DNA of 4,918 nt from a virus. Lineage: Duplodnaviria > Heunggongvirae > Uroviricota > Caudoviricetes. The notes beneath the pieces were generated by a model, which was not told the DNA's origin, searched no databases, and saw only the letters and a program-made list of their open reading frames with translations. The stretch lies in IMG/VR virus record IMGVR_UViG_3300001149_000098. One strand, written 5' to 3'. Below, piece after piece: positions 1,227 to 4,918 of this stretch. Both the position numbers and the translations under genes were made by a program. Numbering within the stretch: the stretch's first letter is position 1; each line of letters opens with the position of its first letter.

Positions 1227-2246
1227 ATGAAAAGCATATTAATTGAAAAACCGAATCAACTGGCGATTGTCGAACGTGAAATACCCACCCCGTCAGCGGG
1301 TGAAGTACGAGTAAAAGTGAAACTTGCCGGAATTTGTGGTTCAGATAGCCATATTTATCGTGGGCATAATCCTTTTGCGAAATATCCGCGCGTCATTGGT
1401 CATGAATTCTTTGGCGTCATTGATGCAGTGGGTGAAGGCGTGGAAAGCGCCAGAGTCGGTGAACGTGTTGCTGTCGATCCGGTGGTCAGCTGTGGGCATT
1501 GCTATCCGTGCTCTATAGGTAAACCGAACGTTTGTACGACACTGGCTGTATTAGGTGTGCACGCTGACGGTGGTTTCAGTGAATATGCCGTGGTTCCGGC
1601 AAAAAATGCGTGGAAAATTCCTGAAGCAGTGGCCGATCAATATGCGGTAATGATCGAACCTTTTACCATTGCGGCTAACGTAACCGGACATGGTCAACCG
1701 ACTGAAAATGATACCGTTCTGGTTTATGGTGCCGGTCCAATCGGCCTGACGATCGTTCAGGTATTAAAAGGCGTCTATAACGTTAAAAATGTGATTGTTG
1801 CCGATCGCATTGATGAACGACTGGAAAAAGCGAAAGAGAGCGGGGCTGACTGGGCGATTAATAACAGCCAGACACCGCTTGGCGAGATTTTCACTGAAAA
1901 AGGCATCAAGCCGACATTAATTATTGATGCGGCTTGTCATCCTTCTATCCTGAAAGAGGCCGTAACGCTGGCTTCTCCAGCGGCACGTATTGTATTGATG
2001 GGTTTCTCCAGTGAACCGTCTGAAGTGATTCAGCAAGGAATTACCGGAAAAGAACTCTCTATTTTCTCTTCACGCTTAAATGCAAATAAATTCCCGGTCG
2101 TTATCGACTGGTTAAGTAAAGGGTTAATTAAACCAGAAAAATTAATTACCCATACGTTTGATTTCCAGCATGTTGCTGATGCCATTAGTTTATTTGAACA
2201 GGATCAAAAACATTGCTGCAAAGTCTTACTCACTTTTTCTGAATAA
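1227..2246 (+). CDS. rspB: Starvation-sensing protein RspB; zinc-dependent medium-chain dehydrogenase/reductase (reported L-gulonate 5-dehydrogenase activity), 339 aa
   Basis: The ORF track opens this frame at a GTG at 1203, but the ATG at 1227 has a strong SD and gives 339 aa (MKSILIEK...). Zn-ADH hallmarks are visible: catalytic Cys/His (GICGSDSH, GHEFFG), a structural-zinc Cys cluster (CGHCYPCSIGKPNVC) and a Rossmann GxGxxG motif (VLVYGAGPIGL). Synteny with rspA. Confidence 0.92.
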   Translation: MKSILIEKPNQLAIVEREIPTPSAGEVRVKVKLAGICGSDSHIYRGHNPFAKYPRVIGHEFFGVIDAVGEGVESARVGERVAVDPVVSCGHCYPCSIGKPNVCTTLAVLGVHADGGFSEYAVVPAKNAWKIPEAVADQYAVMIEPFTIAANVTGHGQPTENDTVLVYGAGPIGLTIVQVLKGVYNVKNVIVADRIDERLEKAKESGADWAINNSQTPLGEIFTEKGIKPTLIIDAACHPSILKEAVTLASPAARIVLMGFSSEPSEVIQQGITGKELSIFSSRLNANKFPVVIDWLSKGLIKPEKLITHTFDFQHVADAISLFEQDQKHCCKVLLTFSE

Positions 2247-2303
2247 TACCAATAACGGCGAGTAAGTAGTACGCATCTTACCTCTTTTTTAGAGATAACC
2301 ATT

Positions 2304-2408
2304 ATGACAATAGAAAAACACGAAAGAAGCACTAAGGATTTGGTGAAAGCAGCAGTATCGGGATGGCTGGGCACTGCGCTTGAATTTATGGATTTCAAGA
2401 GTCATTAG
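2304..2408 (+). pseudogene. ydfJ: 5' fragment (34 codons) of an MFS-family transporter gene (ydfJ-like), truncated by prophage insertion
   Basis: ATG at 2304 with a weak purine-rich stretch upstream. Translation MTIEKHERSTKDLVKAAVSGWLGTALEFMDFKSH* contains the N-terminal motif typical of ProP/ShiA/KgtP-type metabolite:H+ symporters (..G..G...E..DF) and then stops at TAG 2406-2408, at the boundary with AT-rich prophage DNA. Synteny downstream of rspB matches the known Qin-interrupted ydfJ of E. coli K-12 (recalled, not searched). Confidence 0.6.
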
Positions 2409-2440
2409 TGTTAACTATTTGATAAATATTAAATTAATTT
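2395..2440. other. Predicted prophage-chromosome junction (att core region) between the ydfJ stub and the integrase 3' end
   Basis: The host-like transporter reading frame ends at 2408 and the integrase stop is at 2434-2436. The intervening DNA is strongly AT-rich (tgttaactatttgataaatattaaattaattttt) and contains an IHF-consensus-like 13-mer on the - strand (2412-2424). The exact core cannot be defined without the other prophage end. Confidence 0.45.
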
Positions 2441-3728
2441 TTCATTGCTTCGTTATGGGGCATGGTTGGGGCAAACTCGCTTAACTGTGTATTTAACAAA
2501 GCTACCTGTGCATTATTGTTTTCAGACATCCATTTTCCGTATACCTGAAATACCATTTGCGCATCTGCATGGCCCATCTGGTTTGCTATAAATGCCGGGT
2601 TAGCACCAGCTGTCAGCGACCAGCAGGCATAAGTATGTCTCGACTGATATGATTTTCGATGGCGGAGTCCGGCACGTTTTATCGCTGCGTCCCACATCTG
2701 CCTTATTGAGTCAACGGTAAAATGGTCACCATAATTTTTTACTCTCGCTGACACTTCAGGTTGAAAAACAAAGGTGCATTTTGTTTTTCTGTTCTGCCAT
2801 ACTCTCTGAGGTGAACATCAATGATATGCTCTTTGCTCAGTCTCGTTAATGTCATCTGACTCCGGAGAGCGTCGATTGCTGGCTTAATAAGATGAATGAC
2901 CCGATTGGTTCCCGCCTGTGTTTTTGGTACCGTGAAACGGTCTTTTGCTAAATTTCTCCTGATCATCATTGTTCCATTTTTCAGATCTATGTCCTCCCAT
3001 CCAAGTGCACACAGCTCACCAGGGCGAATGCCAGTATAAACAGAAACACACCATAAATTTTTTGCTTGCTGATTTCTGCACGCATCGATAAGACGGATAA
3101 ATTCCTCCCGCGAAAGAGGATCCGGAATGGTTCTTGATTCCTTTAATGGCGAGATCCCCTTAAACGGATTATCTGCCAGGTAACCGTTATCAACACCAAA
3201 CTGGAACACGGCGTTAAGATTTGTCATGTAATTATTTACAGTTACAGCCGATCTCCCTGGTTGTGTAACAATATAGTTACTTTTGGGGATCTGGTATCCA
3301 GTCAGTAGCTCTTTACGAACCTCCAGTAATTTTTCTTTATTAATCGATGAGGCAAGATTTTTTTCACCGATTATGCTCAGGATATTTTTGATGACGGCAC
3401 GGTATGTGTTGAGTGATGTTTTGGCGACTTCAGTTTCTTTTAGTGCCAGAAATTTTTCAGCCAGTTCTTTTATGGTTAAATCTTGTCGGGCCTCACCAAA
3501 TTTTTCCAGATTGCGTGAGGAGGGAAACTGTTTTGCATAGTCGAAAACACCAGTTTTTATTGCGTAACAAACAGAGGCGCGTAGTTCACCTGCAACGCGC
3601 CTGTTTTTTGCTGTGTCAGGAACCCCCAGATTTTCCCTGACTCTTACGCCTTTATAAACAAACCAGATACGTAATTTCCCTCCATGGTTTTCCACGCCTG
3701 TCGGATATTTCATTTCAACTTCTCTCAT
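2434..3728 (-). pseudogene. intQ: Phage tyrosine integrase (IntQ/IntR-like, N-terminal arm-binding domain), disrupted by a frameshift into 329-aa and 106-aa frames
   Basis: The 329-aa frame (2739..3728) has an N-terminal MKYPTGVE..GKLRIWF arm-binding-type motif, box I Arg (TGIRPGE) and the conserved Lys (PKTQAG). The 106-aa frame (2434..2754) has box II (SRHTYACW) and the His/Tyr nucleophile region (GHADAQMVFQVYGKW). The frames overlap at 2739-2754 and differ by one base. The shift must lie within 2742..2817 and probably sits in an A5 or T5 run (2764-2768 or 2784-2788 on the + strand). The start may be the second ATG at 3713 (MKYPTGVE), which has a better purine-rich stretch upstream. Confidence 0.85.
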
Positions 3729-3747
3729 TAGTTAGTGTGGCTTTTAG

Positions 3748-3885
3748 TCAAGTAAGATGACGTCTTGGTCTCGCTGATGCCTGGCGCTCAATCCAGCGAT
3801 CAATTTCTTCCAGGTTGTAAAAGCATGGACTGTTATCCCATGGCATACCGTCATGAGCGACATGCTTATATTCCCTTCCTTCCAT
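3748..3885 (-). CDS. Excisionase-like small protein (DUF1233-type pattern); 45 aa from the first ATG, with the open frame extending upstream to 3966 without a canonical start
   Basis: Hand translation of the - strand gives MEGREYKHVAHDGMPWDNSPCFYNLEEIDRWIERQASARPRRHLT*, with stop TGA at 3748-3750, 19 nt upstream of the int start in the same orientation (classic xis-int arrangement). The W.EG.EY...DG...FYN.EEIDRWI pattern resembles putative excisionases. The same frame continues upstream as RHVSEEQLIALKGIKKGTLKKAREKSF with no ATG, GTG or TTG. Confidence 0.5.
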   Translation of the reverse strand: MEGREYKHVAHDGMPWDNSPCFYNLEEIDRWIERQASARPRRHLT

Positions 3886-3941
3886 AAACGATTTTTCCCG
3901 GGCCTTTTTTAACGTACCTTTTTTTATTCCTTTCAGCGCAA

Positions 3942-4448
3942 TTAACTGCTCTTCGGATACATGGCGTTAACTTCTGGCATTTTCATCAACGCTTCAACGA
4001 TATGTCCGTCGAATGTTGCCATGTCTTCCTGCAACAATTCCTGTGCGCTAATAACCATATCAACGGTGATGTTTTCACATGTGTCGAACTTAACCATGAC
4101 AGCGTTCTGTACTTCAGGGGCCAGCTTGTCAAAAGTGACGTTCATCGGATCGGATTCAGTCTCAACCGGGACAAAAGAAGCAGACTCCTCATCCCAGCGG
4201 TTTTCCTGCATATATTCAGCATCCCATGAATCGAGGGCAGGGCGGGGTATGCCAGGTTTATCCTCGCAGACAATAAATTTATAAGCGCAGTCCTGAGCAG
4301 CCGGATAATGTTCCAGGAACTGCCAGTGAAATTTTGCTCGAGCACGGCGTTCGTCGCCAGCTTCAATGGCTGTGGCTACAGCCACAGCGCCTTCTTCCCT
4401 TGTTGCCAGTTCGTCAGGAATAGCGGCGCAAATAAAGACTTTACTCAT
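3942..4448 (-). CDS. Highly acidic 168-aa prophage protein of unknown function (positional counterpart of Qin ydfE)
   Basis: ORF 3942..4448 with ATG at 4448-4446 preceded by GAGG about 9 nt upstream. Hand count gives about 32 Asp+Glu against 14 Lys+Arg, with no obvious transmembrane segment or catalytic motif. It lies between ydfD and the xis-like ORF, co-oriented with the dicB operon. Confidence 0.65.
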   Translation of the reverse strand: MSKVFICAAIPDELATREEGAVAVATAIEAGDERRARAKFHWQFLEHYPAAQDCAYKFIVCEDKPGIPRPALDSWDAEYMQENRWDEESASFVPVETESDPMNVTFDKLAPEVQNAVMVKFDTCENITVDMVISAQELLQEDMATFDGHIVEALMKMPEVNAMYPKSS

Positions 4449-4541
4449 TTTGTTTTAACCTCATGACAGATTTAAGGATGAACAAATCCCTGCCATTGCT
4501 GGCATATAAGAATGAAACCGGATATTTATTACGGAACTGTT

Positions 4542-4733
4542 TTAAAGACCTGCCGGGATTTCGATATTATCCTGGTGAATAACTTTATCGACCGGGTAAC
4601 AGTTACCGGGAATTTTCTGTTCGGTTGCTGCAGTCATACACTCCTGCATTGTCCTGTGAACACTGTCTGCAATATCAACTGGCTCTCCGGAAACAAGAAA
4701 AACTGTCAGAACAAGCGCAAATGCTGAATTCAT
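4542..4733 (-). CDS. ydfD: Qin-prophage small lysis protein YdfD, 63 aa, with N-terminal hydrophobic segment
   Basis: The ORF track gives an 81-aa frame (4542..4787). The ATG at 4733-4731 (MNSAFALVLTVFLVSGEPV...) is preceded by AAGGA about 8 nt upstream and yields 63 aa, the known size of YdfD. Its start overlaps the dicB stop as ATGA. The N-terminal hydrophobic stretch fits a membrane-acting lysis protein. Confidence 0.7.
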   Translation of the reverse strand: MNSAFALVLTVFLVSGEPVDIADSVHRTMQECMTAATEQKIPGNCYPVDKVIHQDNIEIPAGL

Positions 4734-4918
4734 TGTGTACATCCTTTTGGCATCAGACGTAAACGAGCCAGCATTGAAACAATGCATATTTTATTTAATA
4801 GCTCCCGTTCTTGTTTTCTCTTGTTAATGGCATCTTCAGTAAATACAGGGTTACTGATAGTGACACCAATTTCAAAACAACCTTCAGACGTATTAACGTT
4901 TGGTAATAACGTTTTCAT
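4730..4918 (-). CDS. dicB: Cell-division inhibitor DicB (MinC-dependent), 62 aa
   Basis: 62-aa ORF starting with ATG at 4918-4916 (the window edge) and ending at TGA 4732-4730. The sequence MKTLLPNVNTSEGCFEIGVTISNPVF... is recognised from memory as DicB; size and position immediately upstream of ydfD match the Qin dicB operon. The upstream dicF sRNA would lie beyond the window. Confidence 0.75.
   Translation of the reverse strand: MKTLLPNVNTSEGCFEIGVTISNPVFTEDAINKRKQERELLNKICIVSMLARLRLMPKGCTQ

Follow-up and report, generated by a model that had tools for sequence, protein, structure and literature searches.

Is an excisionase-like reading frame that lacks an ordinary start codon still a gene, and if it is not, how did it come to lose its beginning? 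The frame in question lies on the minus strand of a 4,918-nucleotide stretch of viral DNA (hereafter, the window). It runs from a stop codon at 3969–3967 to a stop codon at 3750–3748 and comprises 72 sense codons. Its translation, RHVSEEQLIALKGIKKGTLKKAREKSFMEGREYKHVAHDGMPWDNSPCFYNLEEIDRWIERQASARPRRHLT, bounded by a stop on either side, begins RHVSEEQLIALKGIKKGTLKKAREKSFMEGREYKHV and ends RRHLT. An ORF listing that accepts ATG, GTG, and TTG, together with a reading of the codons one by one, finds none of the three before the ATG at 3885 (bp 3883–3885), and the sole listed ORF in this frame extends from 3885 to 3748, giving 45 residues. In the 27 codons that precede this ATG, the near-cognate starts are limited to ATT at 3942–3940, CTG at 3936–3934, and ATA at 3927–3925. 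The sequence GAAGAG is found upstream of the ATT, at 3953–3948. In addition, the frame shares 25 nt (bp 3942–3966) with a 168-aa ORF extending from 4448 to 3942, relative to which it is in the −1 phase. These features had been described in an earlier note made from the letters alone, and they stand: the 72 open codons from 3969 to 3748, the first ATG 27 codons in and its 45-aa product, the restriction to ATT, ATA, and CTG upstream, the GAAGAG ahead of the ATT, and the overlap with the end of the 168-aa ORF. That note left a choice among non-canonical initiation at the ATT, a decayed start in a degenerate excision module, and a real 45-aa product.

Our answer is that the frame is very probably the 3′ 85% (codons 14–83) of an ordinary lambdoid xis gene of the DUF1233 family, truncated by one deletion in an ancestor of the E. 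coli B lineage. The evidence concerns the family to which the frame belongs, the DNA that lies upstream of it, and the distribution of the arrangement among E. coli genomes, as follows.

A profile search of the 72-aa translation, which the earlier note had proposed as a check, gives a match to Pfam PF06806/DUF1233 at 94.6 bits (E 2.7e-27, residues 3–62), well above the cutoff of 22. The 64-aa version that begins at the ATT scores 83.5 bits and the 45-aa version, which is confined to the C-terminal half of the profile, 55.5 bits. The difference between 94.6 and 55.5 bits upholds the claim that excisionase similarity extends upstream of the ATG. No NCBIfam model matched either the 72-aa frame or the intact 83-aa Xis. 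The DUF1233 match of the frame covers profile positions 10–69 of 70, whereas intact 83-aa homologues cover positions 1–69. Thus, it is the N-terminus of the family itself that is missing, and not merely a start codon. That is, the frame lacks the complete N-terminal segment with its P-G-K-W motif and reads R-H ahead of a valine, where homologues have the invariant residues G11 and W13.

The intact gene is found in phage mEp460_ev081 and in E. coli ZH142 (same rspB-proximal locus), where it is 252 nt long and encodes 83 residues. It opens MSEVIMIVSPGKW, followed by VSEEQLIAL; the N-terminal reading in mEp460_ev081 and ZH142 is also given as MSEVIMIVSPGKWVSEEQL and MSEVIMIVSPGKWVSEEQLIALKG. The identity of the window to intact Xis begins exactly at V14, which is the third codon of the frame, and bp 3960–3748 of the minus strand correspond to codons 14–83 plus the stop codon. 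A tblastn search of phage genomes with the 72-aa frame found 100% identity over residues 3–72 in mEp460_ev081, HannyBb, Tritos, and PhiR42_1, along with 149 further, more distant matches. Between the remnant and mEp460 xis there is one base difference, a synonymous one, as would be expected if the truncation were recent and had not been followed by adaptation. Set beside the DUF1233 excisionases of mEp460_ev081, the VT1-Sakai/933W-type Stx phages, and Gifsy-2, and beside 2KVV, the window copy is of the same family, being 100% identical over 70 residues to mEp460 xis, and it has the same position, immediately upstream of a co-oriented tyrosine integrase with an Arm-DNA-binding domain. In the window the remnant lies at the prophage end, 34 bp from the start of int at 3713 and on the same strand. 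It differs from these relatives in having neither the first 13 codons, which include G11 and W13, nor a canonical start codon and ribosome-binding site of its own.

Alignment to the xis genes of intact relatives, also proposed earlier, shows where these genes begin. The annotated starts of the Gifsy-2, VT1-Sakai, Yersinia phage, and SaltyDalty genes, whose products are 44–47% identical, lie 12–13 codons upstream of the equivalent of the valine. In 19 database homologues, the least similar of which is 64% identical, the protein begins 10 or more residues ahead of V14 without exception, and G11, W13, and V14 are invariant. M39 is aligned and invariant in a six-sequence alignment. Among the full-length homologues examined, none starts at the equivalent of the ATT at 3942 (Ile21) or of the ATG at 3885 (Met39). 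Start-site annotation of this small gene is inconsistent between sources. Several database entries are 94–124 aa long rather than 83, and appear to be calls extended to earlier in-frame starts; many other entries are short, at 40–57 aa, and labelled partial.

What lies upstream of V14 in the window is exonuclease DNA. In mEp460_ev081, an intact exonuclease gene of 2,472 nt, encoding 823 residues, is found upstream of xis, and its first ~495 nt make up the 168-aa ORF of the window. The ORF, at 4448–3942 on the minus strand, therefore consists of codons 1–165 of the 823-aa protein, followed by K-S-S and a stop codon. The Rv2179c-like 3′-5′ exonuclease domain of the intact protein spans residues 642–813, and a Pfam scan of the stump found no domain. 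In the NCBIfam scan, the full-length exonuclease matched PRK09709, below the cutoff for that model. RefSeq labels the stump ‘exonuclease VIII, incomplete, missing C-terminus’. The earlier reading of the 168-aa ORF as an upstream gene overlapping xis must accordingly be replaced: it is a 165-codon N-terminal stump of an 823-aa gene, and since two stumps have been joined in different frames, its overlap with xis is a by-product of the junction. The K-S-S tail and TAA of the stump (bp 3942–3953) are chimeric, deriving from xis DNA read in the +1 phase, and the RefSeq partial exonuclease feature ends at 3951, short of the chimeric stop.

The junction itself can be placed to within a few bp. Compared with mEp460_ev081, the window is missing 2,095 bp between two 7-bp direct repeats, GTATCCG, a length that is an estimate, as the ancestral arrangement is read from a related phage and not from the direct ancestor. 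In the mEp460_ev081 locus, the repeats are found at 1407–1413, within exonuclease codons 163–165, and at 3502–3508, within xis codons 14–16; when they are extended by the next three bases, 9 of 10 positions match. A three-way alignment shows the window following the exonuclease gene to AACGCCATGTATCCG and then xis from GTATCCGAAGAGCAGTTA, with the switch from exonuclease-internal to xis sequence falling within GTATCCG. The junction sequence is CCATGTATCCGAAGAGCAG, and the sole retained copy of the repeat is at 3954–3960 on the minus strand. Megablast breakpoints agree, in that exonuclease-side matches stop at 3951 or 3954 and xis-side matches stop at 3960. Thus, the intact arrangement has a copy of the repeat at each flank and the junction has exactly one; by sequence comparison, this is the textbook trace of DNA lost between short direct repeats. 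Relative to mEp460, the losses are the C-terminal 658 codons of the exonuclease gene (~1.97 kb), including the catalytic domain, a 72-bp spacer carrying the xis ribosome-binding site, and the xis ATG with the first 13 codons. No evidence contradicting a deletion origin was found. A point-mutated start codon was also considered and is ruled out, as the sequence upstream of V14 is exonuclease-derived rather than diverged xis.

The chromosomal setting shows how widely this arrangement occurs. Megablast of an 801-nt query against complete E. coli genomes found the window to be 100% identical to E. coli BLR(DE3), where the RefSeq layout is rspA, rspB, a 5′ ydfJ fragment, int, xisR, the exonuclease VIII stump, ydfD, and dicB. 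Here a Qin-like lambdoid prophage is inserted in ydfJ, and the locus is at its left end. The boundary between chromosome and prophage (att) is at about bp 2397–2400, as prophage-free genomes match the window only from 2247 to 2396 or 2399. A 34-codon ORF at 2304–2408 is the 5′ end of ydfJ, which encodes an MHS family MFS transporter and is interrupted by the prophage. At ydfJ, 2,707 of 5,426 complete E. coli genomes run on into integrase-type sequence; with about half of the genomes occupied, ydfJ is a very commonly used att site. Sequence matching the exonuclease side or the xis side is present in ~4,000 of the 5,426. The junction between them is spanned in 32 of these genomes with a 131-nt probe and in 36 with the 801-nt probe. 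Most of the 32 listed are recognizable as laboratory strains of the B lineage: BL21 and its derivatives, C41/C43, NEB B strains, BLR, and engineered descendants of BL21. From this distribution, the deletion looks like a single, recent, lineage-specific event.

The integrase gene that the excisionase would have partnered is also broken, as had been claimed. It occupies 3713–2434 on the minus strand, PGAP calls it ‘frameshifted’, and when it is set against the int genes of mEp460 and ZH142 the only gap is a lost base in an A-run, between 2781 and 2782 (gene column 933; GAAAAACA-AAATG). The frameshift splits a gene of 426 codons into frames of 329 and 106 residues, and the Pfam domains Arm-DNA-bind_2 and Phage_integrase are divided over the two ORFs. 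The intact int genes of mEp460_ev081 and ZH142 are 1,281 nt long, and the window int is otherwise ~99% identical to them.

From the direct observations on homology, junction, repeats, and restriction to one lineage, a simple course of events can be proposed. In an ancestor of the E. coli B laboratory lineage, a single deletion of 2,095 bp would have occurred between the GTATCCG repeats; as its likely cause we infer replication slippage or another form of microhomology-mediated illegitimate recombination. The one event would have taken out the exonuclease catalytic domain, the 72-bp spacer with its ribosome-binding site, and the xis ATG with 13 codons together, and would have left the exonuclease and xis stumps joined in different frames. 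The absence of a canonical start and the apparent overlap with the 168-aa ORF are then both explained, because the deletion fused the two stumps. Together with the 1-nt loss from int, the deletion would leave the Qin-like prophage without a working excision module and hence locked in. The remnant presumably makes no functional protein. Of the options first raised, the decayed start in a degenerate excision module comes closest: decay and a broken integrase are indeed found, but the start codon was deleted, not mutated.

The rival that fares best has the remnant as a gene still, with ribosomes that finish the exonuclease stump at its TAA (3944–3942) reinitiating at the AUU at 3942–3940 to make a 64-aa XisR. 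RefSeq/PGAP annotates just such a CDS, xisR (WP_048339841.1, 64 aa, ‘excisionase family protein’), which corresponds to window bp 3748–3942 with ATT as first codon; at the BLR(DE3) locus the CDS is at 4049–4243, equivalent to the same window interval, and the first codon is translated as I. The geometry is also suggestive. The stop and start codons share a base (UAAUU), an SD-like AAGAG is six bases upstream, and the 64-aa product keeps 83.5 of the DUF1233 bits. AUU is a proven start in E. coli, in infC and pcnB, but it is a weak one: initiation from AUU is ~0.02–3% of that from AUG, and these two genes are the only confirmed AUU-initiated ones (Hecht et al., bioRxiv 10.1101/063800). The resemblance of xisR to infC and pcnB extends to an annotated ATT start with an SD-like element upstream. 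It ends there, as the AUU codons of infC and pcnB are native and experimentally confirmed, whereas the ATT of xisR is an internal isoleucine codon exposed by a recent deletion.

How much of the fold a protein begun this late would lack was judged from an AlphaFold2 model of the intact 83-aa relative, not of the remnant. The model is of moderate confidence (pLDDT 71.9) and has a strand at residues 13–15, helix 1 at 16–23, helix 2 at 29–36, strands at 44–46 and 59–62, and a C-terminal helix at 63–74. The predicted secondary structure may parallel that of λ Xis, a likeness on which nothing here is made to rest. A Foldseek search of the PDB with the model of the intact relative gave one meaningful match, to 2KVV, the NMR structure of a putative excisionase from Klebsiella (E 2.4e-3, probability 1.00, TM 0.59–0.63), and no significant match to λ Xis itself; the sequence match to 2KVV has an E of 0.0039. 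Residues 1–10 of the model are of low confidence and probably disordered. Most of the 13 lost residues may, therefore, be flexible or unnecessary, and folding is conceivable for a product that begins close to V14. Against this, G11 and W13 are invariant, and on that ground the lost N-terminal segment is argued to matter. In terms of the model, the AUU-initiated product would be without G11, W13, the whole of strand 1, and all but three of the eight helix 1 residues.

The start position that homologues share also speaks against the AUU. In every full-length one examined, the start lies ahead of V14 by 10 codons or more; the codon at issue is their internal I21, which was never selected as a start. 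The SD-like element and the stop-start geometry arose by chance at the deletion junction and are not conserved, the arrangement is confined to one lineage, and the partner integrase is frameshifted. A promoter and terminator scan of bp 3600–4918 found no sigma-70-like promoter on the minus strand from which the remnant could be transcribed on its own, and there is no promoter-like site on that strand nearby. It is therefore unlikely that the ATT-initiated protein is made in meaningful amounts, and a functional role for it is less likely still. As for the earlier proposal of initiation at the ATT, RefSeq agrees on the start, but no homologue begins near it, and a product begun there would be without the G-x-W motif, strand 1, and the greater part of helix 1. 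It is a faint prospect that, were the DicA-controlled operon derepressed, a little 64-aa Xis could come from the AUU and might bind DNA, weakly regulate, or interfere with related phages in BL21-type strains.

A real 45-aa protein made from the ATG at 3885 is more doubtful again. This ATG is the sole canonical start in the frame, and the product keeps 55.5 bits against DUF1233. However, in the intact protein this codon is Met39, an internal and conserved residue lying past both HTH helixes, so that the product would lack both of them as modelled (residues 16–23 and 29–36). The few entries of 40–57 aa among the database hits are mostly labelled partial, and no full-length homologue examined starts at this Met; the starts of the full-length ones, as noted above, lie 12–13 codons upstream of V14 in the five annotated phage genes, or at least 10 upstream. 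Nor is there a convincing Shine-Dalgarno sequence, the DNA upstream being GGGAAAAATCGTTT. The proposal of a genuine 45-aa product thus fails on the comparison of homologue starts named in the earlier note.

The notion of a sequencing or assembly error, or of a programmed −1 frameshift by which the exonuclease stump and xis would yield one fusion protein, for which the −1 phase of the two frames and their 25-nt overlap might be cited, can be set aside as next to impossible: the first is ruled out by the identical junction in 32 independently assembled complete genomes, and the second by the overlap, ATG TAT CCG AAG AGC AGT TAA, which has no X XXY YYZ slippery heptamer, and by the juxtaposition being the product of a lineage-specific deletion rather than a conserved arrangement.

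With truncation by deletion as the preferred reading, the feature is a pseudogene cut short by that deletion, and the cryptic prophage around it shows ordinary decay. The Qin prophage of K-12 offers a parallel. It is in the same site, ydfJ next to rspB, it has the same neighbors, namely dicB, ydfD, an exonuclease stump, and an integrase remnant, and its excision module is likewise destroyed. The lesions differ. The K-12 locus compared here (W3110, NC_007779.1, 1648241–1655786, locus positions 1365–3995) retains nothing of xis; its exonuclease stump, of 768 nt, is separated by an IS2 remnant from an int truncated at the N-terminus. No IS is present in the B lineage, where the damage consists instead of the 2.1-kb microhomology deletion and the 1-nt frameshift in int. 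It follows from the differing lesions that the excision module was lost independently in K-12 and in B.

The excision module of the B strains may already be described in the 2009 papers of Studier and of Jeong (J Mol Biol 394). The literature covered beyond these had no account of xis in the Qin excision module of B strains, and on this subject the re-annotation paper for BL21(DE3) says no more than ‘decay of cryptic prophages’.

The biological significance of the truncated xis is small, as this is routine pseudogenization in a cryptic prophage. Its practical consequences are two. The xisR entry WP_048339841.1 (64 aa, ATT start), found in BL21(DE3) and relatives, is most reasonably taken for a truncated pseudogene and is not to be counted as an example of AUU initiation. 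In addition, the inability of the Qin-like prophage in B strains to excise is accounted for by the deletion and the int frameshift.

Farther upstream on the minus strand, the promoter and terminator scan turned up a single feature, a weak terminator-like hairpin at 4504–4491, between ydfD and the exonuclease stump. It reads TGCCAGCAATGGCA and then GGGATTTGTT, and its 5-bp stem is near the expectation for shuffled sequence and probably not significant. Beyond it, ydfD (bp 4542–4733) and dicB (bp 4730–4918), both on the minus strand, overlap by 4 nt at 4730–4733 in an ATGA-type coupling, as in K-12, and the DicB of the window ends KGCTQ.
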